64,000 nt of DNA from a virus (Duplodnaviria; Caudoviricetes), in the IMG/VR virus record IMGVR_UViG_3300025732_000037, positions 1,834-65,833 of that record; one strand, given 5' to 3'. The position numbers and the translations under genes were made by a program. Positions 830 through 57,221 of the stretch are shown one piece after another. Each line of letters begins with the position of its first letter. The stretch's first letter is position 1. A model generated the notes under the pieces. The model did not search any database. It saw only the letters and a list, made by a program, of their open reading frames with translations, and was not told the DNA's origin.

Positions 830-834
830 AGTTC

Positions 835-41867: not shown

Positions 41868-41898
41868 TTGGAGAAGAATTTAAGTAGGTTGGTCTTAT

Positions 41899-41933
41899 AC
41901 TACTAGGACACTTTAGAGATGAGTAACTTTAAT
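41899..41933 (-). repeat. 35-bp cassette-boundary element, copy 1 (type A)
   Basis: Plus-strand text actactaggacactttagagatgagtaactttaat. Confidence 0.9.
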
Positions 41934-41947
41934 CACTCACACATCGA

Positions 41948-42136
41948 TCAGACTTGGGTAACGAAGTTGGTACCACTGGAGCGATTTGTGCGGCAACGAT
42001 TTCCCTTCGTTTGTGTCATCACCAGATCAGACTTACGGGGTTTCGCAGATGCTAACCGTGTGACCTTAACCTTACCCTGAACCTCAGCAATCATCAGATC
42101 CAGAGTAGACATTGAAGCGAACTCAGTGAGTGTCAT
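41948..42136 (-). CDS. Hypothetical protein
   Basis: 62-aa ORF ending just before repeat copy 1. Confidence 0.55.
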   Translation of the reverse strand: MTLTEFASMSTLDLMIAEVQGKVKVTRLASAKPRKSDLVMTQTKGNRCRTNRSSGTNFVTQV

Positions 42137-42170
42137 TTTGAGAAGGATTGAAGGGAGTTTGTGTTACTTA

Positions 42171-42419
42171 TCAGTCGCGGGGAGATGTAGACCAAGGAGC
42201 ATAAAATCCTTCAATCTCACCAAACGTTTGCTCCAGATACTTCTCTTCATTTGAGAGAGTTTTGGTCACAAATTCGTCGTTCAAATAGTATTGAAACTCA
42301 GTGTACCATGACTTGATACGATTACCCTGAGCGTCCCACGATTGACGCCACAGAGTGTTAGGAAAGCACTGATAGACGTTACCAGTGAAGGGGGAAGTGT
42401 AGGAGGAGGTGTTTCTCAT
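42171..42419 (-). CDS. Hypothetical protein
   Basis: 82-aa ORF whose ATG directly follows repeat copy 2. Confidence 0.65.
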   Translation of the reverse strand: MRNTSSYTSPFTGNVYQCFPNTLWRQSWDAQGNRIKSWYTEFQYYLNDEFVTKTLSNEEKYLEQTFGEIEGFYAPWSTSPRD

Positions 42420-42454
42420 ACTACTAGGACACTTTCAAGGTGAGTAACGTTAAT
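42420..42454 (-). repeat. 35-bp element, copy 2 (type A)
   Basis: actactaggacactttcaaggtgagtaacgttaat. Confidence 0.9.
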
Positions 42455-42469
42455 TGTCGAACACTAGTG

Positions 42470-42883
42470 CTACTCTACTGTCTGCAGACGTTCTATAAAC
42501 TCATCCAGATAGTCTGTCGGATCGTGACCTAACTCTGCGATACGATTTAACTCATTTAAGATAGCACTCATTTGCTTCACATAAGGTACGCGCATTCTCT
42601 CTGTCGTACCCAGAAAAGTGTAATTCTTCGGTCTCCCGCCAGCACAATTCTTGGGACGAAACCTAGCATCTTTCCTACTCTTTTCGATGTGGCATTTGTT
42701 ACATAAAAGTTGGCACTTTGATAACTCTTCCTCCAAAACTTCCTTGGGTTTGTGATACCCTGCGGAAATGTTGAATGACTTTGTGGAGGGGTCAATATGG
42801 TCGAACTCTAATGTTTCAGTGCAACCGCATTCTACACACTTTCCACCCAGTTTTTCGATGAGGATTTCTCTAAAATAGTTCAT
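42470..42883 (-). CDS. HNH endonuclease
   Basis: CVECG..LEFDHIDP..CQLLCNKCH. Confidence 0.85.
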   Translation of the reverse strand: MNYFREILIEKLGGKCVECGCTETLEFDHIDPSTKSFNISAGYHKPKEVLEEELSKCQLLCNKCHIEKSRKDARFRPKNCAGGRPKNYTFLGTTERMRVPYVKQMSAILNELNRIAELGHDPTDYLDEFIERLQTVE

Positions 42884-42888
42884 AGGTA

Positions 42889-42944
42889 TTTTGTCCTTTA
42901 ATACCTTTTTATTTATAGTGTTTTTGATGTATTAAGGGACAAAA
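42889..42944 (-). promoter_or_regulatory. Leader-sequestering inverted repeat flanking a TATAAATA late promoter
   Basis: TTTTGTCCCTTAATAC..TATAAATA..GTATTAAAGGACAAAA just before the HNH ATG. Confidence 0.75.
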
Positions 42945-42959
42945 CTAAAAGTGCGTTTC

Positions 42960-43133
42960 TTACCACTTAGAGGGACAATCGAGGTCCTCAACGTATGCTT
43001 CACACTTCTCAGATGGCTCAAGTTCGAATAACTTCTCCCAGTCTATTTGGTGTGGATCGAAGTCTGCTAGAACGTTCATTTCCAGAGTGATCCTATAACG
43101 CTGCTTCTGTGCTTGATGATACGCAACCGACAT
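42960..43133 (-). CDS. 57-aa hypothetical protein
   Basis: Hand translation MSVAYHQAQKQRYRITLEM...; AAAGGAG SD and its own promoter. Confidence 0.65.
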   Translation of the reverse strand: MSVAYHQAQKQRYRITLEMNVLADFDPHQIDWEKLFELEPSEKCEAYVEDLDCPSKW

Positions 43134-43160
43134 AAGTACGCTCCTTTGAGTTATGGAATC

Positions 43161-43189
43161 ATTCTATAATGTCTTGGAGTAGGTGTCAA
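43161..43189 (-). promoter_or_regulatory. Sigma70-type promoter
   Basis: TTGACA-17-TAGAAT. Confidence 0.7.
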
Positions 43190-43262
43190 GTACCTGGGGA
43201 GTATTTATGTGGGTTCCGGGGGACTCTGGGAGGGTCTTGTGAGGATTTTGTGACCTTGGGGG

Positions 43263-43291
43263 TTGACGGATTGCGTTCCTTATGTTATGCT
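43263..43291 (+). promoter_or_regulatory. Divergent sigma70-type promoter
   Basis: TTGACG-17-TATGCT, upstream of the plus-strand GIY-YIG gene. Confidence 0.6.
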
Positions 43292-43452
43292 GTCTTAGAT
43301 GACTACAAGATCACACATTTATTAAAGATACCACGATCAATATAACAATCTCATACACCTTTTATTTTACATTATTTTTTCCATCAGTTAGTATAGCAAA
43401 CCATCATCAAAAAGGTGCTATTTATACATATTATTAGAACGTCTTATCAGTA

Positions 43453-44205
43453 ATGAACCAAGGAATAATCTATGCCATTTTCAATAAAGAAACTGGCAAA
43501 TATTACATAGGTCAAACTATACACGAACTGAACAAAAAGTGGAAGGAACATCTATATGAAGCGCGGAGAATGAATGATGCTCCACTATACAGATCTCTAC
43601 GCAAATATGGAGAAGATAAGTTTAAGATTAGGGTGATAGAAGAGTGCTCTGCGGATATACTTGACGACAGAGAAACTTACTGGATAAATGAATACAACTC
43701 TTACATCAATGGATATAATCAAACTTCAGGATCTGGCGGTCAGTATAGAGTAAGCATTACAATGAGTGGGGTTGAGAAGACACCAGAACACATTGAAAAT
43801 ATAAGAAAATCAATAAAAAGAAACGGCGTTGGTTTTAAGATAAGAGGTGACGGTAAGCATAGTTGTGTCAAAGTAAAAACGATAAATGTTGATACTCTGG
43901 AAGAAAAGTTTTACGATAGTTTAACTGAATGTGCGAAAGCATTAAATATCACAAATGGAAACCTTTGTCGTTATATCAAACACGGATGGAAAGTTAAAGG
44001 TCACAGAATAATCAAGTTAGAGAATAAAAAGAAAAGTCACGCAATCTATGGCGTAGATAAGATTACAAATCAAGTCAAATATACGTTCTCAAGTGTAAGA
44101 GAAGCAGGGAGAGTTTTAGGAACTGGTGGAGCAAGTGGATGTGATAAATCACTCAAACATCCACACAAATACACTTGGAAAGGTTGTTATTGGTTCTATC
44201 AATAA
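43453..44205 (+). CDS. GIY-YIG homing endonuclease with C-terminal NUMOD1-like HTH repeats
   Basis: GIIYAI..YYIGQT, E..WI..YNS..NGYN; YDSLTECAKAL and FSSVREAGRVL repeats. Confidence 0.88.
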   Translation: MNQGIIYAIFNKETGKYYIGQTIHELNKKWKEHLYEARRMNDAPLYRSLRKYGEDKFKIRVIEECSADILDDRETYWINEYNSYINGYNQTSGSGGQYRVSITMSGVEKTPEHIENIRKSIKRNGVGFKIRGDGKHSCVKVKTINVDTLEEKFYDSLTECAKALNITNGNLCRYIKHGWKVKGHRIIKLENKKKSHAIYGVDKITNQVKYTFSSVREAGRVLGTGGASGCDKSLKHPHKYTWKGCYWFYQ

Positions 44206-44209
44206 ACAT

Positions 44210-44239
44210 AAAAAAAGAGCGCGGTTACCAATCGCGCTC
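44210..44239 (-). terminator. Rho-independent terminator
   Basis: GAGCGCGATTGGTAACCGCGCTC followed by T7 on the minus strand. Confidence 0.75.
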
Positions 44240-44453
44240 GTGTTCACCCAACCACCTTTTTATTGGAATTATCTATACTCTACGGAAGTCACTTTTGATT
44301 GTAGATGAGGCAAACTCCCTTCCTCTTTGTATGAAATTAGTTAAACCAGTATGCTAAATCTGCGAGTTCTGATGCAATCTCTTCTAGATTATCTTCGGTG
44401 AGTTTGCTGATGAGTTGTTGTTTGAGATTAGCGTCCATGATTATCATTTAAGT

Positions 44454-44765
44454 TCAGTTGAGTTTGATACCATTGTTGAAAGGAACATCACCGTTGGATG
44501 TTGATACAAACCACTGAAAGTTCTTTTGATAAACAGACTCACCAGTTCCGTGCTCTGAGAGAATAGCATTAAGACGCGATTTGGTGGTATTTGATTTTAC
44601 TCCACCATCAAAGATTTCCAACCAAGTATCACCTACCATTGCAATCAGATTGCTATACAGATAGACGAAACTTACACCTTCAATGTTAATGACTTGAGTG
44701 TTTGCGGATTTCCAATCAGTTTCGGTGCTGATTGCGCGGTTCATTTGTGCTTCGATCTTACGCAT
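44454..44765 (-). CDS. Phage hypothetical protein
   Basis: 103 aa, TTKSRLNAIL motif. Confidence 0.7.
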   Translation of the reverse strand: MRKIEAQMNRAISTETDWKSANTQVINIEGVSFVYLYSNLIAMVGDTWLEIFDGGVKSNTTKSRLNAILSEHGTGESVYQKNFQWFVSTSNGDVPFNNGIKLN

Positions 44766-44788
44766 TGTGGTTTGGGGTAAGTGGTGAT

Positions 44789-44823
44789 ACTACTAGGACA
44801 CTTTGAAGGTGAGTAACTTTAAT
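44789..44823 (-). repeat. 35-bp element, copy 3 (type A)
   Basis: actactaggacactttgaaggtgagtaactttaat. Confidence 0.9.
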
Positions 44824-44831
44824 CAGGCAGG

Positions 44832-45035
44832 TCAGAGATTGGATTCCATGATCACATCACGAACTTCCATCTTGAAGTAATCATAACCCAGCTTCTCCAG
44901 CAGATAGATCGTGTAAGCATCTGCAGTGGATTTACAATCAAACAGTTTCAGGGAGTTGAAGTCTTCACCTTCATACTTATATCCACCAATTACAGCATAG
45001 ACTTTCATATTGATTTGATCGGGAGTGAGAGTCAT
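44832..45035 (-). CDS. Hypothetical protein
   Basis: 67-aa ORF. Confidence 0.6.
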   Translation of the reverse strand: MTLTPDQINMKVYAVIGGYKYEGEDFNSLKLFDCKSTADAYTIYLLEKLGYDYFKMEVRDVIMESNL

Positions 45036-45041
45036 TTCAGT

Positions 45042-45302
45042 TCAGAAATTAAGTGATTTAATGTTGAGAAAAACCATCTGAAGAGGTTCACCGTTCACAT
45101 GAAAGAACACATAGTTAGGGTGAACTTCAATGTCACCATCTACAGTGGAGAGGTCAACATAATCATGCCCATCATTGTCTGAAATGTAGGGATTGTCGTC
45201 TGTATCATACCCTACAAAATAGAGGATATCATTGACACTTACAGCATAGGAATCTGCCAGAAGATTGTGAAATTGATTGAGAGTGATAGTAGTGTGAGTC
45301 AT
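45042..45302 (-). CDS. Hypothetical protein
   Basis: 86-aa ORF. Confidence 0.6.
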   Translation of the reverse strand: MTHTTITLNQFHNLLADSYAVSVNDILYFVGYDTDDNPYISDNDGHDYVDLSTVDGDIEVHPNYVFFHVNGEPLQMVFLNIKSLNF

Positions 45303-45326
45303 TTGTGTTACAGTTTGTGAGGGAAA

Positions 45327-45614
45327 TCAGATACGAAATGCACCGAGAGAGTTAAACTTAGTCCAGATGTTTTTCTCTGCGATACGCTTACCGTCAATCT
45401 GGAAAGTATAACGGAGTTGTCCTTTTACAGTCTTGGAAACTTTACACGTGAGGCAAATCTCACCGTCACGCTTACCATTCCAATCATACTTTGGAAAGTA
45501 GTGATTACAAACTCCATCGAAACGGCAATCAACAACACTGTTACGTTGTTGATAGTTTTCAAGTGCAAGTTGCTCAGTGAGAGCAATGCTGTCGAAGAGG
45601 TCGTGTGTGTTCAT
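45327..45614 (-). CDS. Hypothetical protein
   Basis: 95-aa ORF whose ATG abuts repeat copy 4. Confidence 0.65.
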   Translation of the reverse strand: MNTHDLFDSIALTEQLALENYQQRNSVVDCRFDGVCNHYFPKYDWNGKRDGEICLTCKVSKTVKGQLRYTFQIDGKRIAEKNIWTKFNSLGAFRI

Positions 45615-45649
45615 ACTACTAGAACACTTTGAAGGTGAGTAACTTTAAT
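45615..45649 (-). repeat. 35-bp element, copy 4 (type A)
   Basis: actactagaacactttgaaggtgagtaactttaat; forms the entire intergenic space. Confidence 0.9.
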
Positions 45650-46062
45650 CAGTAGTAAGTTCGAAACACATAACCATTCACAAATGTGAAATCATAGCGT
45701 AGATTTTGCTCAAAAGTTTCTTGCCAATCAATCACAACAAATGAAGGAATATCGTACTGTTCAGATGTATATTCCTCTGCAAACTCTGCTTCTGAACGAT
45801 ACTCTCCAACGTATGCGTTCTCTGCGTTCTCTACATCAGAAAGACCAAACTCTTCAACGAACGCATCAACAACATCATAACCAAGATTCTCACCTTGCGT
45901 CACATATTCTTCGTAATAGTTAAGAAAATCCTCTTCAGAGTTTGCATCAATGAACTCTAGAATATCCTCCAGAGCATAGTTATCCTCCACGAACTCATCA
46001 ATCTTATTGACAATTTCTTCGTTGAAGATTTCTTTATAGTTGTTAGTGAGAGTGACAGGCAT
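45649..46062 (-). CDS. ArdA-like acidic antirestriction (DNA-mimic) protein
   Basis: Very D/E-rich; YVGEYRSEAEFAEE..IDWQ..D.TFVNGYVFR resembles the ArdA C-terminus. Confidence 0.65.
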   Translation of the reverse strand: MPVTLTNNYKEIFNEEIVNKIDEFVEDNYALEDILEFIDANSEEDFLNYYEEYVTQGENLGYDVVDAFVEEFGLSDVENAENAYVGEYRSEAEFAEEYTSEQYDIPSFVVIDWQETFEQNLRYDFTFVNGYVFRTYY

Positions 46063-46111
46063 TTGTGTTAAGAATTGTGGTTTGAGTTTGTGACTTTAAT
46101 ATCTTGGAAAA

Positions 46112-46294
46112 TCACATTCCGTTGATAAAGTCAGCGAGTGCTTTTTTGTATTCAGTTTCGGTAGCAAATGTGCGACCGTGAATGGTACGCGGATAGGTTA
46201 CGTTTGTTTCACCAACTGCAGCAACATTGCGGCAGTCTTGCTCATCGTAACCCATTTCAATGAGGTTTTGAACGTAGGGATTGTAATGTGTCAT
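46112..46294 (-). CDS. Hypothetical protein
   Basis: 60-aa ORF whose ATG abuts repeat copy 5. Confidence 0.65.
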   Translation of the reverse strand: MTHYNPYVQNLIEMGYDEQDCRNVAAVGETNVTYPRTIHGRTFATETEYKKALADFINGM

Positions 46295-46329
46295 ACTACT
46301 AGGACACTTTGAAGGTGAGTAACTTTAAT
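46295..46329 (-). repeat. 35-bp element, copy 5 (type A)
   Basis: actactaggacactttgaaggtgagtaactttaat. Confidence 0.9.
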
Positions 46330-46353
46330 TCATTGAAACTTTCTCTCTTAAAC

Positions 46354-46533
46354 TTACATCAATGCCTCTTCTTCATCTATATTTTTCTTGAGGAAAATGA
46401 TACGTTTTCTATCTTTTGGAACAGGACAACTCCTGTTCTGTTTGCAATATGCTCTCCTACCTTCTCCCTTTCCAATGTAATAGGGAGTTCCATCTTCACG
46501 CAGATATGCGTAAGTGTAAAACTTGTTATTCAT
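46354..46533 (-). pseudogene. Truncated GIY-YIG endonuclease (59 aa)
   Basis: [29 protein letters not shown]...EEEALM*, paralogous to the N-terminus of 60315-60998. Confidence 0.85.
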
Positions 46534-46630
46534 TCTACTTTATGTGCCGCATCAGTATTTATGCAAGAAAGGGGGCATTTCTGCCCCCAATCTCTTTGCT
46601 TAGTTGCGACACATAAGCACTATTATTTAT
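46534..46630 (-). ncRNA. Putative antisense-loop RNA cassette A
   Basis: ATAAATA; stem TGCTTA/TAAGCA carrying CTTATGTGTCGCA; hairpin GGGGGCAGAAATGCCCCC+TTTCTT; CATAAATA; leader TGCGGCACATAAAG. Confidence 0.7.
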
Positions 46631-46795
46631 TCAATCAACCTCAACCCATTCTTCTCCATTATACACAACATCTGTACCAAAAACATCTGTGAACTCCAGC
46701 AAATAGTAATCTACAGATACACCTTTGATTGCAGCATCTTGAAGAGTTTGGTGATACTGTTCAGAGGTGAGAATGAAGAAATCAGTTTCAATCAT
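46631..46795 (-). CDS. 54-aa hypothetical protein
   Basis: Hand translation MIETDFFILTSEQY..SVDYYLLEF. Confidence 0.5.
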   Translation of the reverse strand: MIETDFFILTSEQYHQTLQDAAIKGVSVDYYLLEFTDVFGTDVVYNGEEWVEVD

Positions 46796-47068
46796 TGAGG
46801 TGAAATAATATCAGCAGCAGTGTGCAATGTGTTGGATGTTACGTTGCGAACTGCTGGTGAAAGTAGAAACGCAACGGTGAAAATCAGGAGAATTGTTTTC
46901 ACTTTACACGGTGATTTGAGTGTTAAACTTCTGCGGATCATTTGCAGAAATTAGGATCAATGTTACAGAATTGTTCTGCGCGTTGTTCTTGATACTCATT
47001 CACGGTTGCGATAGCATTAGCACCGAACTGAATACCAACGAAAAGTGTAGCGAAGAGAAGAACAATTC

Positions 47069-47275
47069 TCATTTCAGAATGTAACGATAATCAATGGATT
47101 TGATGCACCAACCTGTTGCACAGGTAATCTCTTCAACTAGATCATCCTCATCATCTGCTTCCCAGATTTGACCAATGGTTTCATCAATGATTTGTTCTTG
47201 TTTGGATGGTTGAAGTTCATACTCACCATCATCAGTGGTGAAATCAAACTTGATTTCAGTAACTTGGAACAGCAT
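47069..47275 (-). CDS. Hypothetical acidic protein
   Basis: 68 aa, ADDEDDLVEEITCATGWCIKSIDY. Confidence 0.65.
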   Translation of the reverse strand: MLFQVTEIKFDFTTDDGEYELQPSKQEQIIDETIGQIWEADDEDDLVEEITCATGWCIKSIDYRYILK

Positions 47276-47277
47276 AA

Positions 47278-47448
47278 TCAGTCAACGATAGAGTAGTTTG
47301 CAACCCAGGAAGGAATACCGCTCAGTGATAAAGAACTGTTGCGGGCATCGCAATAATCTTGGGCATCATCTTCAGAGTAAAAAGGTCCAATGTATTCTGG
47401 AGAATCAAGAGATTCAGACCAGAAACGAACGGTGAAAGTGTTAGTCAT
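47278..47448 (-). CDS. 56-aa hypothetical protein
   Basis: MTNTFTVRFW..YIGPFYSEDDAQ; ATG abuts repeat copy 6. Confidence 0.6.
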   Translation of the reverse strand: MTNTFTVRFWSESLDSPEYIGPFYSEDDAQDYCDARNSSLSLSGIPSWVANYSIVD

Positions 47449-47483
47449 ACTACTAGAACACTTTGGAGGTGAGTAACTTTAAT
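47449..47483 (-). repeat. 35-bp element, copy 6 (type A)
   Basis: actactagaacactttggaggtgagtaactttaat. Confidence 0.9.
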
Positions 47484-48069
47484 TAGTTGAACTTTGCGTT
47501 CACTCCAACTACCTTACAAGTTGGGTTCCTTACGAGTGCAGTTTCACGCGCATCTTTGGGTGAGTTAGCATACACTTCCTCAGTGAAGACTTTGCCGCCT
47601 TGATAGAGTTTAACTTCGAATTTCATACAGAAGGAATAACAGAGATTTCTTTAATGTTGAGACCGCAGAGTTGATTATAGACGCGATTGAGTATCAGTTT
47701 GTCCGCAGTCTTTGCATCGGATTTCTCATACCAAACGGTCACACATCCATCGTTAGTTTCAACCATCACGCGATAGTTTTTCATCAGTCAAGACACACAA
47801 AGTTGTAATCAATAATGTCTTCACCTTCATCAAGATTTAGACATTCAGCAATAGCATCAGGGATAAACTTGCGAGGATGACTATTCTCATCAATCACAAT
47901 CTCAAGTTTAACAACCCAAGTTTTGGTAGTCATAATCAATAAGTTTCTTTCTGGTTTTGTCGGCGTTGAGAGTCTTCATCCTCCTTAAATGGTTTATACT
48001 CAGGATGAGCATTTTCCCATTTAATCAGTTCATCAATCCAGGAAGAGTTGGAGTTGGTTTTTTTCATAA

Positions 48070-48309
48070 TCAGGCAGGAAGTGTGCAGAAAGTTCCACAC
48101 CAACCGCGAACCCATTGTAGAGTTTCAGCGTAGGAAGTGCGAGGGTTGGACATCTCCATCGTCTTACCATTGCGGGGATTGTGTGCAACGGCGACGTAGG
48201 AATAACCTTTGTACTCATCACCAGACTGCTCAATCCACATCTGGTTGACTTTGCCTTCCTTCCAATCGGTGTGGTAGGAGTAGATTTCGGAAACGATTGT
48301 TTTGCTCAT
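48070..48309 (-). CDS. Hypothetical protein
   Basis: 79-aa ORF whose ATG abuts repeat copy 7. Confidence 0.65.
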   Translation of the reverse strand: MSKTIVSEIYSYHTDWKEGKVNQMWIEQSGDEYKGYSYVAVAHNPRNGKTMEMSNPRTSYAETLQWVRGWCGTFCTLPA

Positions 48310-48344
48310 ACTACTAGGACACTTTGGAGGTGAGTAACTTTAAT
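48310..48344 (-). repeat. 35-bp element, copy 7 (type A)
   Basis: actactaggacactttggaggtgagtaactttaat. Confidence 0.9.
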
Positions 48345-48350
48345 TGCTTG

Positions 48351-48760: not shown

Positions 48761-48761
48761 T

Positions 48762-49075: not shown

Positions 49076-49110
49076 ACTATAGGGACACTTTCAGCGTCCC
49101 CCCTTTCAAT
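49076..49110 (-). repeat. 35-bp element, copy 8 (type B, hairpin-forming variant)
   Basis: Coding strand ATTGAAAGGGGGGACGCTGAAAGTGTCCCTATAGT. Confidence 0.8.
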
Positions 49111-49568: not shown

Positions 49569-49603
49569 ACTACTAGGACACTTTGGAGGTGAGTAACTTT
49601 AAT
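49569..49603 (-). repeat. 35-bp element, copy 9 (type A)
   Basis: actactaggacactttggaggtgagtaactttaat. Confidence 0.9.
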
Positions 49604-49621
49604 TCACCAAGTTTTGGCAAG

Positions 49622-49715
49622 ATAAATACTTTGCCTGGTTTGTGTGGTAACTTCTCAGGTAGGGGAGATTTTAGGATTTCCCCTCATAAATAATAAAACC
49701 ACACAAACAGAGCAG
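49622..49715 (+). ncRNA. Putative antisense-loop RNA cassette B
   Basis: ATAAATA; stem GCCTG/CAGGT with loop GTTTGTGTGGT; hairpin AGGGGAGAT/ATTTCCCCT; CATAAATA; leader ACCACACAAAC. Confidence 0.7.
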
Positions 49716-50096
49716 ATGAAAGAACATCCTACCCATAAGGGTTACTTTATCACGAAAGATGGTAAGATTTTTAGTGCCTGGCAAAGAAAAGCAAATCCAG
49801 GATTTGGTAATAGTTTTTACTATGTAATAGATACAAATAAGATGAGAGAACTGAAATCTTGGGACAATAAAAAGGGGTACTTAATCCTTAACTTAAAAGG
49901 TTCTAAAAAGAACTGGAAAGTCCATAGATTAGTTGCAGAAACTTATTTGCCTAATCCATATAATCTACCACAAATCAATCATAAAAATAAAAATACAAAA
50001 GATAATAGTATTTCCAATCTAGAATGGTGTACGGCATCATATAACGCAATACATAGAGATTACTTTTCTATACTTTCTGAAAGCGTCCAGAGTTAA
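49716..50096 (+). CDS. HNH homing endonuclease (NUMOD4/HNH_3-type)
   Basis: Y.ITKDGKI, VHRLVAETYL, INHKNKNTKDNSISNLEW; likely start MKEHP. Confidence 0.88.
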   Translation: MKEHPTHKGYFITKDGKIFSAWQRKANPGFGNSFYYVIDTNKMRELKSWDNKKGYLILNLKGSKKNWKVHRLVAETYLPNPYNLPQINHKNKNTKDNSISNLEWCTASYNAIHRDYFSILSESVQS

Positions 50097-50970
50097 AGTT
50101 AGCGTGGGAAAAAACTTCTCTATTCACCAACTTATAGCAACCAAACTTGTTAGATAAGCAGTAACCTTCTGCATCAATACGATTGTATCCGATATAAGCA
50201 GCAGGACCATCATTACGACAAAGAAACAGGCAATCGTCTTTGATAGACTTCACAAGAGACCACAAACGAATGAGGTTAGGGTCACAATCAAAGTCATTCA
50301 CATTATCTACAGTAATCTGCTCACCTGCACGAATAAAATCATTCAGTTTCTTGGTAATCTTTGCTGCTTCTTTGTTAGAAACAAACTCACACATCGTAGA
50401 CATTTGACGCGCAAATGCACAAACTTCTTTTACATCAGCGAAGTATTCTTGCTGATGGACGATATAAGCATCAGGTTTCACAAACTTGCAGTAAGGTGTA
50501 TCGGTGATACTAAACTTCATCGGATACGCTACTGCATCACGCAAATCATTCTCTGCGATGTAGACAGTATGAGGAGCAAGAATAATCTCCTCAGTAACTA
50601 CATCAGGAAACTTGTAAGTGATAGTATTTGGTTTGTACTCATCACTACCACCAAACCCGATAAAGTCTGCTTGAATGATAGCATTTACACGCGGCAGATA
50701 GTCAAAGCAAGCGTGAAGAATGTTTGCTACATTACCTTCGTGATTTGCGTCAATATCCTGATGCGATTCGTTGATTTTGATTTTAACTTTATTGAAGACA
50801 CTTTTGGTCCCCACGAAGAAGTTACCAGTCGCAGGATTAATACCAAAAACTACTGCAGGAGCACCATCAATCTTGACAGACAGATTGCCAGGAGTTACAA
50901 ACCAATCCAGCACAGACAAATCGCCCGTGAGAATAGAATCTTCAGGATGTTGCAGGTGAGTGTTCTTCAT
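50068..50970 (-). CDS. Conserved phage protein with ligase/nucleotidyltransferase-like KxDG motif (DUF6267-like)
   Basis: KNTHLQHPED, SVKIDGAPA, EGY..KLVNREVFS. Confidence 0.7.
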   Translation of the reverse strand: MKNTHLQHPEDSILTGDLSVLDWFVTPGNLSVKIDGAPAVVFGINPATGNFFVGTKSVFNKVKIKINESHQDIDANHEGNVANILHACFDYLPRVNAIIQADFIGFGGSDEYKPNTITYKFPDVVTEEIILAPHTVYIAENDLRDAVAYPMKFSITDTPYCKFVKPDAYIVHQQEYFADVKEVCAFARQMSTMCEFVSNKEAAKITKKLNDFIRAGEQITVDNVNDFDCDPNLIRLWSLVKSIKDDCLFLCRNDGPAAYIGYNRIDAEGYCLSNKFGCYKLVNREVFSHANFNSGRFQKV

Positions 50971-51005
50971 ACTACTAGGACACTTTGAAGGTGAGTAACT
51001 TTAAC
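50971..51005 (-). repeat. 35-bp element, copy 10 (type A)
   Basis: actactaggacactttgaaggtgagtaactttaac; contains the upstream gene's TAA. Confidence 0.9.
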
Positions 51006-51729
51006 TCATTGCAGAAATGAGAGGATTGTTGATACGATCTTGTGCAATCTTAAAATACTCCTCATCCATTTCAATACCCACAAAGTTTCTATTAGTGTTC
51101 ACACACGCTACACCAGTTGTGCCTGATCCCATCGTATTGTCTAGTACAGTATCACCTTCGTTAGTGTATGTTTTAATTAGATACTCCATCAAATCAACAG
51201 GTTTTTGTGTAGGATGCAGACCCTTTTCTTGCTTGAATCGCAATACTGTCTTAGGGTATCTTGATCCATCAGGATTATCCCGATGCTTGCTCTTTGCACT
51301 ACCATAAACCTCACCAATCTTACTGGTTTCGGATGAGAAACCACTGTAAGGTGTAGAGTACCACATTTGAGGATTGTATGTAGGTTTCTTTCTATAAAAG
51401 ACCAGTATGTTTTCGTGTGACTTGAGAGGCATTACTTTTGAGTTCATAGGATTAGTCCCCTGAGGTTTTTCCCAGATCCATTCATAACGAAAGTTCTCAA
51501 GATTTGATGCTGCAAGTATAGTTGTGAATGGTTGTGCTGCAGTGAATACCATTGCACCATCTTCTTTACAGATTCTATTGTATTGCTCCCACAGTTTATC
51601 CAGAGGAATGATAGAATCCCATTTACACGCTGTTGTACCGTATGGCAAATCTACCAACACCAGATCCACAGAATCATCTGCAAGTGTTGGTAGAATGTCT
51701 AAACAATCGCCGTGAAATAGATTCACCAT
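51001..51729 (-). CDS. DNA amino-methyltransferase (N4C/N6A, beta class)
   Basis: GDCL, DLPY catalytic motif, HPTQKP, DNTMGSGTTG SAM-binding motif. Confidence 0.92.
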   Translation of the reverse strand: MVNLFHGDCLDILPTLADDSVDLVLVDLPYGTTACKWDSIIPLDKLWEQYNRICKEDGAMVFTAAQPFTTILAASNLENFRYEWIWEKPQGTNPMNSKVMPLKSHENILVFYRKKPTYNPQMWYSTPYSGFSSETSKIGEVYGSAKSKHRDNPDGSRYPKTVLRFKQEKGLHPTQKPVDLMEYLIKTYTNEGDTVLDNTMGSGTTGVACVNTNRNFVGIEMDEEYFKIAQDRINNPLISAMS

Positions 51730-52262
51730 TCGGTTATGTTCTTTACAAAGGAACATTCTACCAGACGATCAACTTTTGTGCAAATGTAATCATCATTGCC
51801 GATAGATTTGCCACCTTGTTGTGGTGCAAACAGACAATCTTCCGTCTCAAGATGATTGAGAAAATCGTCCTTACTAAACCAAAACAGACGACAATCTTTC
51901 TCATCCTGATTGATGCCAAAAAACACAAGACGTTCCCAATCTTTATCTTTAGAAACGTGATTGATGATAAACTGATCTTTCTTTGTGCCACCTTTTTTGT
52001 CACGGGTAGCAAGAGAGAACTTAATTTCGGTGCGAATGTTATCAATCACACGATCGTGCCCTGCTGTAGATGTTTTGGCACGTTTTACATCACACAGCAA
52101 CACATTCTCAAAGAACTTAGAGACGAAACGCTCACCAAACTCACCTTTCTGTTTGGGAGACATAAACACATAACCTTGGAAAGGTGTACCAATCCAAGGA
52201 TCTTGTGCATTTTGATTGATGTAATCTTGGAGAGATCCATCCTCAAAAATAGAAACAAACAC
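51723..52262 (-). CDS. Putative type II restriction endonuclease (PD-(D/E)xK)
   Basis: KQKGEFGE..GHD..TEIKFS; overlaps the MTase start; probable GTG start at 52262. Confidence 0.6.
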   Translation of the reverse strand: MFVSIFEDGSLQDYINQNAQDPWIGTPFQGYVFMSPKQKGEFGERFVSKFFENVLLCDVKRAKTSTAGHDRVIDNIRTEIKFSLATRDKKGGTKKDQFIINHVSKDKDWERLVFFGINQDEKDCRLFWFSKDDFLNHLETEDCLFAPQQGGKSIGNDDYICTKVDRLVECSFVKNITEW

Positions 52263-52281
52263 GTTGAATACCTTTCTATAC

Positions 52282-52316
52282 ACTATAGGGACACTTTCGG
52301 CGTCCCCCCTTCCATA
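52282..52316 (-). repeat. 35-bp element, copy 11 (type B)
   Basis: Coding strand TATGGAAGGGGGGACGCCGAAAGTGTCCCTATAGT. Confidence 0.8.
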
Positions 52317-52320
52317 AAAC

Positions 52321-52345
52321 AAAAAAAGGGAACTTGTAAAGTCCC
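52321..52345 (-). terminator. Rho-independent terminator
   Basis: GGGACTTTACAAGTTCCC followed by T7. Confidence 0.6.
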
Positions 52346-52348
52346 CAG

Positions 52349-52370
52349 GTGCCACTTCAGTTAGTGGCAT
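52349..52370. promoter_or_regulatory. Palindromic operator-like box
   Basis: GTGCCACT-N6-AGTGGCAT; related boxes at 53950, 59124 and 60329. Confidence 0.6.
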
Positions 52371-52372
52371 AC

Positions 52373-52618
52373 TTAGCGCGGATTTGCTGATACTCGAGTA
52401 TCAAGATAATCCAGCACGTTCTTCACATAGGGAGCAACAGTTTGAGTAACTTTGCTCAGATCATCACGAAGTTTGTTAACTTCATATTGATGGATTGCCC
52501 AGCGAACCTTAATGTCTTCGATGTATTGCTGGCGAGTGATGAGAACCTCAGGAACTTTCACTTCAGGAGCAGCAACAACAGCAGGAACATTTGCGGTTTG
52601 CTTGCGAGCGCGAGGCAT
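52373..52618 (-). CDS. Hypothetical protein
   Basis: 81-aa ORF. Confidence 0.65.
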   Translation of the reverse strand: MPRARKQTANVPAVVAAPEVKVPEVLITRQQYIEDIKVRWAIHQYEVNKLRDDLSKVTQTVAPYVKNVLDYLDTRVSANPR

Positions 52619-52636
52619 AGATTAGATGCGTCTTAC

Positions 52637-52671
52637 ACTACTAGAACACTTTGGAGGTGAGTAACTTTAAT
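52637..52671 (-). repeat. 35-bp element, copy 12 (type A)
   Basis: actactagaacactttggaggtgagtaactttaat. Confidence 0.9.
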
Positions 52672-52846
52672 CCACAGGAAGTTGTGCTACACTTTTACCC
52701 TTTTTGTGATCTGTGATGTACTTTCGTGCTGATGCTTCGGTCTTACAAAGTTTCTCAAGTTGCTGACCTTTGTGAATGATGAGATACTGTTTTCCATAAG
52801 GAATAACAGCATATTCATCCCTAAACATTGTGAATCCTTCGATCAT
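52667..52846 (-). CDS. 59-aa hypothetical protein
   Basis: MIEGFTMFRDEYAVIPYGKQYLIIHKGQQL...; stop lies inside repeat 12. Confidence 0.55.
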   Translation of the reverse strand: MIEGFTMFRDEYAVIPYGKQYLIIHKGQQLEKLCKTEASARKYITDHKKGKSVAQLPVD

Positions 52847-53844
52847 TTGATTTCAACAAGAGATTGAGGATCTTCAACACCAATCAGTTGAGGAAGGGCA
52901 CCAGCAATAGAGTAAGAGGAAGAACAAGTTTCCATACGCTTAGAGACATACTTACGAACAAGTTTATCAAGTTCCTCAAGATATTGAATGGCATACTGAC
53001 GTTGTGCGGCAACTTCTTCTGCAGTTTCACACCCTTTGGTGTAGGTAACTACATCAGTAACGTCAATGTCACGCTCAACAAAGTTCTTCATAATCTGAAG
53101 AAAACCACGCTCAATGTAAGTCCTATCTTTTGCACAAATTACAACAGGATTAGTAGAAGAACTGGTATCAACAATCTCACTAACTTTTGATTGTGCGTTC
53201 TTGGGATGAACAAAAGGAAGAATGTTGACTGCGATTGTTGTCTGCTGATAGATCTTATTCGTGATGTCTTCTACTTGCTTGGGAGTGAATGAATGGTTGA
53301 TACTACCCACCCAATTTTCAATTTCTTTCTTAGACAGAGAGTTACCATTTCGCTTGCAATACTGCACACCGCGAAGGACAAAATCGTTGAGAGTGTGTCG
53401 CTTTGCTACAGTGTGATTGTTTGCACCCAGAGAGACAACATCATAGGCATCTTCCAAACGATTTGCCCAACTTTCTTTCAGTCGGTAAACAAGAAAAGGA
53501 TAATCTTTGATACCAAGTTCATAGGCAGCATTACTACGATTATATCCATCCCACATTTCCTTCTCACCGTTAGGAAGGATCATCACAACTGGGGGGAGTT
53601 CGGTTACACGATAACCTTTCTGAAACTCTGCAATCAGTCCGTTAATGTTGTTGGTATCGACACCACCAGCGCGAGCAGCATTTGCTTGCTGTTGAATGTT
53701 AAGGTTATTCCATTGGAGGATCTCAATGCTTTCAAACTCAGCACATTCAAACTGCGGAATGTCAAGAGATTTGAACGTAGGATTACTCAACAGAGCATCC
53801 CAAGAAGTCACATTAGACTGGAAAAAAGGAACAATTTGAGTCAT
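52843..53844 (-). CDS. Protein with ParB/Srx-like N-terminal domain
   Basis: PPVVM..EMWDGYNRSNA resembles the ParB-N DGxxR motif. Confidence 0.6.
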   Translation of the reverse strand: MTQIVPFFQSNVTSWDALLSNPTFKSLDIPQFECAEFESIEILQWNNLNIQQQANAARAGGVDTNNINGLIAEFQKGYRVTELPPVVMILPNGEKEMWDGYNRSNAAYELGIKDYPFLVYRLKESWANRLEDAYDVVSLGANNHTVAKRHTLNDFVLRGVQYCKRNGNSLSKKEIENWVGSINHSFTPKQVEDITNKIYQQTTIAVNILPFVHPKNAQSKVSEIVDTSSSTNPVVICAKDRTYIERGFLQIMKNFVERDIDVTDVVTYTKGCETAEEVAAQRQYAIQYLEELDKLVRKYVSKRMETCSSSYSIAGALPQLIGVEDPQSLVEIK

Positions 53845-53912
53845 TATTAAGAAAATAGCAAGGTTTGCTTTTTGTCAGTCCGTTTGAACAAGAGTTCCGA
53901 ACTGATGAGTGT

Positions 53913-53959
53913 AGTTTAACAACTTTGGGTGGGGATGTCAATCCCCTGTGTGACACTTT
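53913..53959 (-). promoter_or_regulatory. Early promoter with upstream AAAGTGTCAC box
   Basis: AAAGTGTCAC-N8-TTGACA-17-TAAACT. Confidence 0.7.
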
Positions 53960-54068
53960 TGAAAAAATCGTTGATTTGATTGCGGAGGATGACCTATGAC
54001 ACCCTTGCAGTAGAATTGCAGAAAAATCAGGTTTTGACCCCTGATGGATACAGGGGTCTCAGTGAGAC

Positions 54069-55310
54069 TCACCTGCGAACCACGCTGATTGCAGGTTCTC
54101 CCTTCTGGAAAATCGTATCAACAACCGACTGCACAGCGCGAGCGGTGCTGATACCAACCTTGTTATAGACAGGTACACAAACCAGACCGAACGATTTGCT
54201 ATACTGAGTGAGGTTGCCAGGTTCAATACGTCCATCGCGCATACCTTTCGCATCATCGTGATGCAGACGGATGCAACGTCCGATGGTCTGAGAGATACCA
54301 ATGAAGTCCATATTGCGAAGGAAAAGTACCGCTTCCAGACCGCTGACGTTGATACCCTCAGCAAGGATGCTATGGTGCAGAACAACGAACTTCTTATCGT
54401 TATCCTTACCCCAGGCAGATAGGGTGTCAAAGAATACCTCACGGTTCACTTTGCGACCATCAATCACAGCACCAGTCTTGGCAGTGATATACATCCAAGA
54501 GTAACCGCGATTCTCTAGTTGATAGCAGAAATCAGTTTCAGACACCAGAGCAACAATTTGCTTGGTTGCCTTAGAGCAGATCAGAATCTTACCGACGCTG
54601 TTCTCATCAATCGTTTCCAGCAGATTCTCAGCGTCCCGATCATAGTTGGTTTGCTTACCAGTTACCATAGGCAGTTGCTTGACGATAACTTTAGGGGGCA
54701 CAATGTATCCACCTTCAACTAGCTCAGGAGCAGGAACTTTGCAGATCACTTGACCGTAGACTGCAGAATCATTCATTCCTGGTTTACCCACAGCAAGCGA
54801 ATGTTTCGGAGTTGCAGTGAAGAAATAACAGCGTCGTGCGTTAGCGGAGAAGTGCTCTGTAGCAGGGAAAAAGTGACGCTGAACGCTGTTATGTGCTTCG
54901 TCAAAGTAGATCGTATCCACATCAATCTCTGCGACTTGAAGACGCGACAGAGAGTTGTAGGTGGTTACAATCAGTTTGTGATTATCGGCATTAGCATTAA
55001 CCCAGTTGTAAATCTCACGCGGACGAGTAGAACTTTGGTGATGCGTCTCCCCCGAATGTATGTGGAAAACCTCAGCGTTAGTGATAAACTCCAGAAACTC
55101 AGCAGAGAGTTGCTCTGCAAGCAGAATAAGCGGAGCGACTACAACAATGGTCTGCGGAGTTTCTGATTGCAACTCGCGCAGAGCATCAAAAATAGCAATG
55201 TTAGTTTTTCCACCCCCAGTCGGGATAATCACTTGACCTTTATTGTGCTGCTGCAGCGCAACAATGCCACGCTCCTGATGAGGACGAAGTTGAATGTTCA
55301 TAGGTTGCAT
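54069..55310 (-). CDS. Superfamily 2 DExH helicase (ResIII-like)
   Basis: LRPHQ, PTGGGKT, DEAH, TAT, EGI and QTIGRCIR motifs. Confidence 0.92.
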   Translation of the reverse strand: MQPMNIQLRPHQERGIVALQQHNKGQVIIPTGGGKTNIAIFDALRELQSETPQTIVVVAPLILLAEQLSAEFLEFITNAEVFHIHSGETHHQSSTRPREIYNWVNANADNHKLIVTTYNSLSRLQVAEIDVDTIYFDEAHNSVQRHFFPATEHFSANARRCYFFTATPKHSLAVGKPGMNDSAVYGQVICKVPAPELVEGGYIVPPKVIVKQLPMVTGKQTNYDRDAENLLETIDENSVGKILICSKATKQIVALVSETDFCYQLENRGYSWMYITAKTGAVIDGRKVNREVFFDTLSAWGKDNDKKFVVLHHSILAEGINVSGLEAVLFLRNMDFIGISQTIGRCIRLHHDDAKGMRDGRIEPGNLTQYSKSFGLVCVPVYNKVGISTARAVQSVVDTIFQKGEPAISVVRR

Positions 55311-55315
55311 TATCT

Positions 55316-55350
55316 AGTATTAGAACAGTTTAGAGGTGAGTAACTTTAAT
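55316..55350 (-). repeat. 35-bp element, copy 13 (type A, diverged)
   Basis: agtattagaacagtttagaggtgagtaactttaat. Confidence 0.85.
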
Positions 55351-55660
55351 CCTCTTTCATTCCCATAAAAACAAGAATACCAATGACAATGATGGCAGGA
55401 ATAGCAATATACCAGTAAGTTGTCAATAAGTAAAGAACAAATCCAATCCCAAGTAACCAAACAAGTCCAGAAGAATCTCCAGAACTGAATGAAGAACCTC
55501 CACCATTGGAGCGAACTTCTCTTAGATTTGTGATCTGCTGAACATTACCGTGTTTAGCGTAAATCTGCTGTTTTGCTCCACTAATAGTTGCTGCTTCTAC
55601 TTCAGTTGTAATCCTGCCAACTTGTGAGTTGACAAATACCTCTGCTCTCCAAGTTGCCAT
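55346..55660 (-). CDS. Small membrane protein
   Basis: C-terminal hydrophobic segments LVWLLGIGFVLYLL and IAIPAIIVIGILVF. Confidence 0.7.
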   Translation of the reverse strand: MATWRAEVFVNSQVGRITTEVEAATISGAKQQIYAKHGNVQQITNLREVRSNGGGSSFSSGDSSGLVWLLGIGFVLYLLTTYWYIAIPAIIVIGILVFMGMKED

Positions 55661-55662
55661 AA

Positions 55663-55860
55663 TCAACCTCCGTAAACTTCTTCAGCGATAGGAGTATCAC
55701 CGAACATTTCATTATACAACCAATCAGTGGGTTTGTCCAGATTATCTTCACACTCTTTCAGAAAGGCAATCTCACGAGTCCAAAACTCAACAGATTTCTT
55801 TGCTTTCAGATACTCATTGCGAGCATCATAAAGTTTGCGTTGGATTTCAACTCGGTCCAT
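55663..55860 (-). CDS. Hypothetical protein
   Basis: 65-aa ORF. Confidence 0.6.
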   Translation of the reverse strand: MDRVEIQRKLYDARNEYLKAKKSVEFWTREIAFLKECEDNLDKPTDWLYNEMFGDTPIAEEVYGG

Positions 55861-55877
55861 AATGTGGGTGTGCTTAT

Positions 55878-55912
55878 ACTACTAAAACACTTTAGAGGTG
55901 AGTAACTTTAAT
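55878..55912 (-). repeat. 35-bp element, copy 14 (type A)
   Basis: actactaaaacactttagaggtgagtaactttaat. Confidence 0.9.
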
Positions 55913-55917
55913 AGGTC

Positions 55918-56595
55918 TCAACTTTCAGATGCTTGTGCTGCTGCTTTTGCTTTTGCTCTCATCTGAACAGCAACTTTACTATTCCACTTTCCACCATCCG
56001 CTTCATATTCTTTACGCATTTGTGCAAGGATTTCCGTGGCAGATTTCTTAGTCTTTTGTGCTGTTGCTGTTTTCTCTTTATTTCTAGCAGCATCTCTCTC
56101 CTGACGTGTCATAGGAGTACCATCAGGATGCGTCCACTTTCTGCGGGATTTTGCTTCTGGTTTTTCTGATGTTGGTTTTGCTTGAGAGATTGCTTGTGAT
56201 GCGGTCTTGGGTTGTTCCTTACCACTTTCTCTTGCTTTACGCTCAAGATATGCTTTACGTTGCAGTTCTTTTCTAGACATTGCAGCACTACCTTGAGTTC
56301 CAGCAGTTCCTGCTTTTAACTCAGTTGAACCTTGACCTCTTCCTGGTGCTGGTGCTGAAGATCCTCTCTGCTGACCAACATCTTTACGTTCTTTGTAAGG
56401 TGCGATTGGTTCTGTTTTACCACCACCAACTGCTCTTGTTCTTCTAACTTCAGGAGCAGTCTTTTTGCGCTCTTTTCCTATTCTACCACCATCACCTGTG
56501 CGGGTGATAGACGCACCACCACCCCATCCAAGTTGTTTGGCAGCATCAGCATCAGATGCTTCGCAAATAGACATAAACTCCCGAAACGTCTTCAT
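55918..56595 (-). CDS. Basic low-complexity protein, probable internal head protein
   Basis: MKTFREFMSICEA CTS-like start; CTAAATA late promoter upstream; K/A/R-rich. Confidence 0.7.
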   Translation of the reverse strand: MKTFREFMSICEASDADAAKQLGWGGGASITRTGDGGRIGKERKKTAPEVRRTRAVGGGKTEPIAPYKERKDVGQQRGSSAPAPGRGQGSTELKAGTAGTQGSAAMSRKELQRKAYLERKARESGKEQPKTASQAISQAKPTSEKPEAKSRRKWTHPDGTPMTRQERDAARNKEKTATAQKTKKSATEILAQMRKEYEADGGKWNSKVAVQMRAKAKAAAQASES

Positions 56596-56621
56596 TGTTA
56601 TCTAAACACTCTTTTTAGTAT

Positions 56622-56834
56622 TTAGTTATCTGCAGCATCACGCAGTTTATCCTGAGCAGATTTGCTAATCTTACAAACCATATCGTTGTCGTAAAAGTAT
56701 TTCACACGTTCACGACGGGCAGCAAGCAAAAGATCATATTCCTCCTGTTGCTGTTTCGTAAAGGTAAAATCTTGCTTCCTCCAAATCTCTTTGAGTTCGT
56801 TCAGATGAGGCAGCACGTTCACAGTTTCAGTCAT
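56622..56834 (-). CDS. Hypothetical protein
   Basis: 70-aa ORF. Confidence 0.6.
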   Translation of the reverse strand: MTETVNVLPHLNELKEIWRKQDFTFTKQQQEEYDLLLAARRERVKYFYDNDMVCKISKSAQDKLRDAADN

Positions 56835-56838
56835 TTAT

Positions 56839-57027
56839 TCAGGATACAGGAGTTTCGGTTTCAGTGGTAGATTCGGTGGACACTTGTTTAGGTGTCACAC
56901 GAACATTGTAAGGACTATTGAAGAACCTGCGGAAAGCAGTAACAACAATAAGAAGCGTTGAAGCAACACCAACCAAACCAAGGAAGGTAACAGCATCACC
57001 ACTGAAAGTGTATTGATCGGGAGTCAT
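56839..57027 (-). CDS. Small single-pass membrane protein
   Basis: AVTFLGLVGVASTLLIVVTAF transmembrane segment. Confidence 0.6.
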   Translation of the reverse strand: MTPDQYTFSGDAVTFLGLVGVASTLLIVVTAFRRFFNSPYNVRVTPKQVSTESTTETETPVS

Positions 57028-57186
57028 AATTAGAAATCGTGCGTAGAGTTCAGGTATTCATTAAAGGATTGATCGTCAAACTCATCATCAATAAAGATGT
57101 TATCTTCATCGACAAAGTTGAAGTAACTTTCCTCTTCGATTTGATAGTTGTCGTTGAAAGGATCCATCTGTTTAATGGGTGCTTAC

Positions 57187-57221
57187 AATATTAGAACACT
57201 TTGGAGGTGAGTTATTTTATT
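57187..57221 (-). repeat. 35-bp element, copy 15 (degenerate type A)
   Basis: aatattagaacactttggaggtgagttattttatt. Confidence 0.75.

Follow-up and report, generated by a model that had tools for sequence, protein, structure and literature searches.

The 64-kb window analyzed here (the whole stretch of DNA, taken from the 65.8-kb IMG/VR virus record IMGVR_UViG_3300025732_000037, which is rated 31% complete in IMG/VR) contains, at 41.9-57.2 kb and upstream of the baseplate genes, an array of genes punctuated by fifteen copies of a 35-bp element. Judged by its gene content, which includes T4-type portal, sheath, terminase, baseplate wedge and head protease genes, the window is a fragment of the genome of a T4-like cyanomyovirus; its portal protein is 80% identical to the portals of the Synechococcus phages S-SM2, SynMITS9220M01 and Bellamy. 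The element is probably one genome's version of a two-part, phage-specific promoter family, which also acts as a recombination seam and heads small early-type genes of a T4-like cyanomyovirus lineage.

The element, its family and its two halves

An earlier note on this DNA had described 13 copies of a 35-bp element and two variants, all in the same orientation, and our searches recovered every one of them; the 13 copies are near-identical, and all 15 are on the minus strand. A scan of the window with the consensus, in which up to 3 mismatches were allowed, gave 12 matches, all on the minus strand, and none in 100 shuffled controls. A repeat search added the 13th copy, at 57187 (family D1, 13 copies), together with the variants at 49076 and 52282 (family D20). 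The 65.8-kb record as a whole has 13 copies, all of them on the reverse strand. Each arm is also concentrated in the array when searched alone: the right arm gave 17 matches where 1.9 were expected, 15 of them inside the array and 2, both weak, outside it, and the left arm gave 14 where 1.1 were expected, 13 inside the array and 1 outside. The two variants retain the right half only, and their left box is G-rich.

As had also been noted, the base that follows the element is a purine in all 15 copies, and in 8 of them it is the first letter of an abutting ATG. These 8 copies (all coordinates in this paragraph refer to the minus strand) are located at 42420..42454, 45615..45649, 46295..46329, 47449..47483 and 48310..48344, where the ATG opens open reading frames (ORFs) of 82, 95, 60, 56 and 79 aa, respectively, at 49569..49603 (the DUF7717 gene), at 50971..51005 (the DUF6267 gene), and at 49076..49110, the last being a variant with the G-rich left box and the shared right half. 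The copy at 41899..41933 is followed by ATA and a 31-nt leader, the copy at 44789..44823 by a 23-nt leader to the Kyano_Gp96 gene, and those at 52637..52671 and 55878..55912 by leaders of 16 and 15 nt. Two diverged copies are located at 55316..55350, before the helicase gene, and at 57187..57221, the most upstream position of all, and the second variant with the G-rich left box (52282..52316) is preceded by a terminator-like hairpin (52328-52346). The stop codon of the upstream gene, as given by the ORF ends, overlaps the 7 copies at 45615, 47449, 50971, 52637, 55316, 57187 and 49076, in agreement with the earlier count; at 45615 it is the stop of the anti-restriction-like gene, and the copy at 50971 contains that of the methylase gene.

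Related elements were collected by two pattern scans of IMG/VR, which returned at least 117 and at least 120 stretches; identical sequences were counted once in all copy counts. Besides IMG/VR contigs, the family spans the cultured phages SynMITS9220M01, S-SM2 and P-TIM68. SynMITS9220M01 has 11 related copies in the syntenic region; a search of its complete genome (190 kb) for the exact right half gave 8 matches, all of them on the same strand and within 38.9-50.0 kb. Although the gene order differs between the window and SynMITS9220M01, four orthologous genes are headed by an element in both. S-SM2 contains 10 copies with a G-rich left box, and P-TIM68 contains 12 copies of an AT-rich version. 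There is no match to the element in the Syn9 genome, and a loosely defined Syn9 pattern occurred no more often than its control. Syn9 carries a short repeat of its own near the helicase gene, located before small genes at 46339, 48608, 51050 and 53046 (three exact copies and one near copy); this repeat ends in a word resembling the non-ATG starts of the element family, and is followed by a leader with AAGGA, as in P-TIM68.

Among the 271 unique copies listed, conservation extends from 7 nt upstream of the TTACTCACC left box to 4-7 nt past the 3′ end. TAGT is followed by a purine in 269 of them (A in 183, G in 86), also where no ATG follows, and the next positions are T (95%), G or A, and A (86%), regardless of whether an ATG is formed. 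In the window all 15 copies point the same way as the genes, and none of the 118 loci listed has copies on both strands. The part common to the whole family is the right half (AAAGTG, 5-7 nt, TAGT, purine). When this half was searched alone, 662 unique copies were listed, with many different left 9-mers, including TTACTCACC, TAGCTCACC, GGGGGGACG, ACTGGGCCC, TCTGGGGCC, TTAGTAACC and CTTGGATCG. Within one genome the left box is uniform: a single left-box class was present in 67 of the 81 loci with at least 4 copies, and the other 14 hold a minority class, like the window with its 13 copies and 2 variants.

The three main copies whose folding was tested fold no better than shuffled sequences (z of +1.06, +1.23 and −0.27). 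The G-rich variant at 49076 folds as a hairpin (−14 kcal/mol, z of −2.6, 9 pairs), in which the left box is complementary to the shared core. In the S-SM2 version of the G-rich element both arms of this hairpin are changed, only partly in step.

Start codons at the edge of the element and cassette junctions within it

The distance from the element to the start of an ORF of 35 codons or more was determined for the 582 unique copies listed across all left-box classes: it is 0 in 288 cases and 14-24 nt in 168, but only 9 cases fall at 1-13 nt. This distribution suggests that the 5′ end of the mRNA lies at the 3′ edge of the element, since an AUG can function at the extreme 5′ end of a message (leaderless) or else after a leader of ribosome length. 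Abutting ATGs open long ORFs in 123 of 132 cases, compared with 10 of 264 control frames, and the Pfam model of DUF6267 begins at residue 3 of the abutting ORF, which indicates that such ATGs are real starts. The stop codon of the upstream gene ends 30-37 nt before the purine (interquartile range), so that the element makes up the whole intergenic space. The position of variant 52282, directly after the terminator-like hairpin, implies that a new transcript must start there. The P-TIM68 element is 2 nt shorter at its 3′ edge, and its start could therefore be 2 nt earlier, at the G of GT. We found no printed report of leaderless early mRNAs in cyanophages, which is not proof of their absence; in the accessible portions of PMC12695635, PMC12801897 and PMC9004378 the word "leaderless" occurs only in the title of a reference.

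In the earlier note the element was proposed to be a non-canonical promoter, with the mRNA starting at the base right after it; the spacing of start codons, the abutting ATGs and the mismatch to sigma70 promoters support this proposal. A consensus scan returned 55 sigma70-like sites (45.9 expected), and all 15 copies are absent from this set, in agreement with the mismatch claimed in the note. Five strong sigma70-like sites occur elsewhere in the array region, on the same strand as the element, and, in contrast to the element, a strong sigma70-like promoter at 43161..43189 (minus strand, 11/12 matching positions) heads a gene led by a Shine-Dalgarno sequence. The NtcA and Pho boxes, as they appear in the accessible part of PMC3037559, were compared with the element by eye and do not match it.

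A promoter read at the DNA level fits best, because the orientation is fixed, conservation runs up to the start, one copy follows a terminator and the copies are confined to one region of a complete genome. The 3′ edge of the element would mark the 5′ end of the mRNA. Approximately half of the messages would start with, or within 2 nt of, their own AUG and be leaderless, and in the remaining ones a short leader of 14-24 nt, poor in G, would precede the start codon. Approx. 20-28 nt upstream of the mRNA end would lie the left 9-mer, which is uniform within each genome and different between genomes. The genes behind the copies are of early type (the anti-restriction-like gene, the methylase, the helicase and ORFans).

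A role of the copies as recombination seams, resembling that of the PeSL elements of T4-type phages, had likewise been suggested, and it is borne out by relatives in which the junctions of indels and replacements lie inside copies. In the window, a cassette composed of a phrog_6927 gene and an N6/N4 DNA methylase gene (51001..52370, minus strand) is flanked by copies 52282 and 50971. Two IMG/VR contigs, L132 and L028, have early arrays that share 86-92% identity with that of the window, and in both contigs the same cassette occupies the slot at 48310. Both of its junctions lie inside element copies, and the moved cassette is headed by the left box of the resident phage, not by the G-rich box that is present in the window. 

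Metagenome contigs of relatives were compared with the window across 41-58 kb at a likeness of at least 88%, with one contig per joint. One contig contains an in-register join of copies 55316 and 55878 (55323 to 55886; 562 nt skipped; shorter side 224 nt), another joins copies 49076 and 52637, in one the left box of copy 48310 is swapped for a G-rich box, and several replacements end at copy edges. Four of the 15 joints listed (146 in all) are located inside a copy or within 5 nt of one, where approx. 1.2 of 15 would be expected by chance, and a fifth lies within 8 nt; for replaced joints the fraction is 8 of the 12 listed (41 in all). One clean deletion (52840 to 53955) is situated away from any copy. 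With the same 35-40 bp on every gene group, the copies would serve as homology seams for deleting, moving and replacing cassettes. The other comparison made in the earlier note, with an integron-like array, is not supported: the 13 main copies lack a hairpin, no integrase was found among the approx. 45 ORFs scanned in the window (the record being a 31% fragment), and the cassettes are co-linear phage early genes.

The 3′ end of the element could also be read as a host-sigma promoter of the T4 middle type, in which TATAGT, TAGTAG or TAGTRT is the −10 hexamer, the left 9-mer is an activator site that replaces the −35, and transcription starts approx. 6 nt downstream; the abutting ORFs would then be translated from read-through RNA only. 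The 3′-end bases T, A, G, T, R, T are 85-98% conserved, an A (77%) after a C (63%) follows 6 nt further on, the left box ends 13 nt before TATAGT, contigs from RNA libraries cross the element, and Syn9 possesses sigma70-like TTGACA...TATAGT promoters with similar bases after them, all of which speak for such a promoter. We nevertheless consider it unlikely, since it leaves unexplained why start codons occur at exactly 0 or at least 14 nt and hardly ever at 1-13 nt, half of the promoters would yield messages without the AUG of their first gene, the Shine-Dalgarno-like AAGGA of P-TIM68 would fall at the very 5′ end of the message, and none of the copies passes the sigma70 scan. The spacing statistics taken by themselves need an RNA 5′ end only, not a start site, and the element might thus act in RNA, within one long early transcript, as an endonuclease processing site whose cleavage creates leaderless ends, or as a Shine-Dalgarno-free landing pad for ribosomes. 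The presence of a co-oriented ORF upstream of nearly every copy and the RNA-library contigs that cross the element are in line with this. We hold such a signal to be decidedly improbable, given that the main copies, at the z values reported above, are less structured than shuffled sequences, that the left box changes wholesale between genomes without a compensating change elsewhere, that one copy stands directly after a terminator-like hairpin, and that the end base is G in 32% of copies.

The junctions inside copies, together with the three homing endonuclease genes of the array, would be expected if the element were only a recombination site (an integron attC-like site or a homing target) with no role in expression. 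This is very improbable: no integrase was found among the ORFs scanned, the main copies contain neither an inverted repeat nor a hairpin, and the strict register of the start codons and the constant orientation would remain unexplained. A promoter of a T7-type single-subunit RNA polymerase is suggested by the right half of the commonest variant, which shares 10 of 14 bases with T7 phi1.1B up to +1, including CTATAG, and by conservation right up to the start. There is hardly any likelihood of this, as a T7 RNA polymerase query, which found its T7 control, had no match at E≤1 in the record of the window, SynMITS9220M01, P-TIM68 or S-SM2; a search with Pfam PF00940 was without a match, and so was its positive control.

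Several observations weigh against the promoter with its start at the 3′ edge of the element. Relative to the proposed start, positions −12 to −7 contain no sigma70-type −10 hexamer. The hexamers that most resemble a −10 lie directly at the 3′ end of the element, with the left box approx. 13 nt upstream of them, a geometry by which transcription would begin approx. 6 nt within the abutting ORFs. The searches found neither a polymerase nor an additional sigma factor that could read the element; the only sigma-like gene in SynMITS9220M01, and likewise in Syn9, is one short gene, which was taken to be gp55. The contigs of one RNA run (X24, 7% of words) cross the element and end inside it, where a repeated 31-mer would break any assembly, which indicates that read-through RNA or DNA carry-over exists; X24 shows no start, and positions without X24 cover carry no information. 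We infer the early timing from gene content and from published work. The metagenome joints each rest on one relative's contig at 88% likeness, and the cassette move seen in IMG/VR is therefore the firmer evidence for the seams.

A basic 225-aa protein as candidate reader of the left box

In a tree of the helicase (106 loci), the left-box class changes 39 times (minimum 7, shuffled mean 59), and well-supported sister phages have wholly different left boxes. These class changes indicate that the genes of the array are exchanged across box classes, while the box stays uniform in each genome. Left out of the tree counts were loci with fewer than 2-3 copies or with a box purity below 70-75%, and proteins cut by contig ends or without the N-terminal word. 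When gene presence or absence was compared with box class, no family stood out (best p = 1.7e-4, 5/9).

It is conceivable, though doubtful, that the left box is recognized by a protein that is encoded in the array and packaged in the virion (about 200-225 aa; 225 aa in the window), and that this protein would bring the host RNA polymerase to the shared right half as soon as infection begins. The window's protein (55918..56595, minus strand) is very basic, with 26% Lys plus Arg (the median net charge of the family is +29), and has a T4-type capsid-targeting N-terminus; in the family an MKTF start is present in 51 of 81 proteins, and [LIVMC]xE[AVEK] occurs within the first 20 residues in 68 of 81. 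A late-promoter-like box is located at 56619..56625 (minus strand), approx. 31 nt before the start codon. Among 105 unique upstream regions of the gene, a (C/T/A)TAAATA box was found 98 times at −35 to −29, and in the window the same box, at the same distance, precedes structural genes, among them those of the portal and the sheath. From these sequence features we read the protein as a late-made, head-packaged and injected basic protein. It would be loaded into the head and enter the host together with the DNA, and crossovers in the shared half would provide incoming cassettes with the left box of the resident genome.

Among 20 gene families of the array, the 225-aa family alone stood apart, with 8 changes of box class versus 23.7 in shuffles; the ratios of the others were at least 0.67. 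With 81 rows, 10 changes were counted on the tree of the 225-aa protein, where the minimum is 5 and shuffles gave 39.3. When trees were compared on 78 common loci, the box class changed 18 times on that of the 225-aa protein versus 33 times on that of the helicase (minimum 11, shuffled 40); the corresponding comparison is 17 versus 27 with DUF6267 (68 loci), and 14 versus 19 with DUF7717 (46 loci). When exact 9-mers were used as labels (n=61), 23 changes were counted on the 225-aa tree, the minimum being 22. The box is tracked more closely by the C-terminal part of the protein than by the N-terminal part (16 versus 22 changes).

A comparison of pairs of loci, which are not independent of one another, pointed in the same direction. 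For 159 pairs with helicases at least 90% identical, the median identity of the 225-aa protein is 67% in the 63 pairs with agreeing boxes and 43% in the 75 pairs with boxes that differ by at least 3, and among 115 pairs in which the 225-aa protein is at least 80% identical the boxes differ by at least 3 in only 3. S-SM2 and P-TIM68 are outside the tree sample, and the tails of their 225-aa proteins fit the clades of their box classes. A profile search of 4 genomes that bear the element revealed a single copy of the protein in every one; Syn9 has none. Its counterparts in the cultured phages are SynMITS9220M01_053, SSM2_065 and, in P-TIM68, AIR93418. Relatives are encoded by 517 IMG/VR stretches; of the best 80 of these 517, chosen by the protein alone, 75 hold elements, all on the same strand and none on the other.

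The gp6 baseplate control gave 4 changes versus 3 for the 225-aa protein, on only 14 contigs, which are too few to decide, and the trees of gp25, gp6 and phrog_1574 (12-22 loci) revealed no clear tracking of the box. Cluster22 (136 aa) tracks the box approximately as well as the 225-aa protein does, on 23-26 shared loci where neither is far from shuffles. Against a role of the 225-aa protein as the reader also stand the occurrence of one box class with three different C-terminal types, two upstream neighbour gene families that may be the true partners instead, and the searches of Pfam, PHROG, Foldseek and VIA, in which no DNA-binding fold was found. The protein has no Pfam or PHROG family, the best Foldseek match has an E of 4, VIA gave only helical hairpins (Z ≤ 6.4), and the ESM Atlas matches are unnamed viral clusters only. 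The AlphaFold2 model (mean pLDDT 68.6) is half disordered, with a three-helix part at the C-terminus. To our knowledge, no T4 internal protein directs transcription. If the 225-aa protein does read the left box, each phage lineage would possess a private early-promoter code.

Two further proteins of the window may be packaged cargo, judged by their N-terminal words: a glucosaminidase-domain protein (57221..57913, minus strand) has a capsid-targeting-like N-terminus, and the word also occurs on a 106-aa protein adjoining the portal (2709-3029, minus strand). The head maturation protease, an enzyme that the capsid-targeting interpretation requires, is gp21-like (phrog_207, E 7.7e-80) and is encoded at 179..886 (minus strand).

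Genomic setting and comparison with known systems

Across the array, the genes downstream of the copies encode the helicase, DUF6267, DUF7717, the N6/N4 methylase, the anti-restriction-like protein, Kyano_Gp96 and many ORFans. The G+C content is 0.39-0.45 in the early array (40000-58000) versus 0.29-0.37 in the structural part (1-40000). The three homing endonuclease genes inside the array are HNH (42470-42883, minus strand), GIY-YIG (43453..44205, plus strand) and HNH (49644..50096, plus strand). The last of these lies directly upstream of copy 49569, in an AT-rich insertion of approx. 465 bp that is absent in SynMITS9220M01 and skipped in some contigs of relatives.

The gp6 baseplate protein of contig L132 is only 61% identical to that of the window, in contrast to the 86-92% DNA identity of the early arrays, and the nearest gp6 (80%) comes from a contig with a different left box. 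The mismatch between array and gp6 suggests that the window is a mosaic of modules with separate histories. Other repeats, which do not belong to the element family, are a terminator-like hairpin with a conserved upstream word (family D10; 46554-46587, 59203-59236 and 61019-61052) and an 80-nt repeat (family D8) at 46439 and 60910. Two giant ORFs with internal repeats (2617 and 2906 aa; 15282-23135 and 28032-36752, minus strand) are located between tail and baseplate genes. The four DNA sequencing runs that share most words (72-85%) with the window are labelled as freshwater metagenomes.

T4-like cyanophages kill a large share of the picocyanobacteria of oceans and lakes. How the expression of their early genes starts is unsettled, because the MotA and AsiA of T4 are missing from them and their early signals do not resemble those of the host. 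Work by Doron and co-workers in 2016 reportedly described a non-sigma70 element upstream of early genes in Syn9 and P-TIM40, which is said to be abundant and conserved among T4-like cyanophages, with host-like promoters driving the middle genes. The window likewise contains both the element and separate strong sigma70-like sites. The element probably belongs with that early element, although identity is unproven, Syn9 having no copies. A match to a characterised class of cyanophage promoters, which by the earlier note would speak against novelty, is accordingly probable.

The middle promoters of T4, which combine a MotA box with a −10 and depend on sigma appropriation, resemble the element in that a factor-specific box replaces the −35 next to a shared core. 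They differ from it in that the downstream half of the element has no clear −10 at the right distance from the presumed 5′ end. T4-like cyanophages have been reported to lack motA and asiA, according to the accessible part of PMC5780444.

The 225-aa protein is comparable to the T4 internal proteins IPII and IPIII. It has an N-terminal tag, 9 of 14 residues of which are identical to IPIII, followed by the protease-type [LIVMC]xE word; it is very basic, its gene is preceded by a late-promoter-like box, and the gene follows shortly after a lysozyme-like gene, as ipIII follows e in T4. Past the tag, in contrast, there is no similarity. The T4 internal proteins themselves have only the capsid-targeting sequence in common, as stated in the accessible part of PMC3012670. 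Through the link between the private half of the element and a capsid-targeted protein, the reader of the early promoters becomes testable in the cultured phages SynMITS9220M01, S-SM2 and P-TIM68.

What is new here is the family-wide spacing argument, the cassette move resolved at the level of its junctions, the decoupling of box class from the genes of the array, and the lead to a capsid-targeted partner. The family represents a sharply defined signal of approx. 40 bp with hundreds of natural variants, for which leaderless early messages are predicted.

A close parallel in organization is provided by the PeSL cassettes, known from the T4-type phages RB49/phi1, T4/PST and KVP40/nt-1 (Arbiol 2010, PMC2839356; Comeau 2014, PMC4122927). 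As described in the accessible parts of these papers, PeSLs are, like the element, short co-oriented regulatory repeats between the small ORFs of a plastic region, and the indels and replacements observed in relatives have their junctions in the repeats. A PeSL consists of a terminator stem-loop and a sigma70-type early promoter (PMC4122927), and for the cyanophage S-PM2 such elements were judged unlikely in the accessible text of PMC4503421. The 13 main copies of the element have no stem-loop, none of the 15 copies matches sigma70, and only variant 52282 follows a terminator-like hairpin; in addition, the start codon is often part of the unit, and half of the unit is private to the genome. 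The element thus works like the PeSL cassettes, yet two features that define a PeSL, the stem-loop and the sigma70 promoter, are missing from it, and it illustrates how a single signal can serve gene expression as well as the free exchange of early genes.

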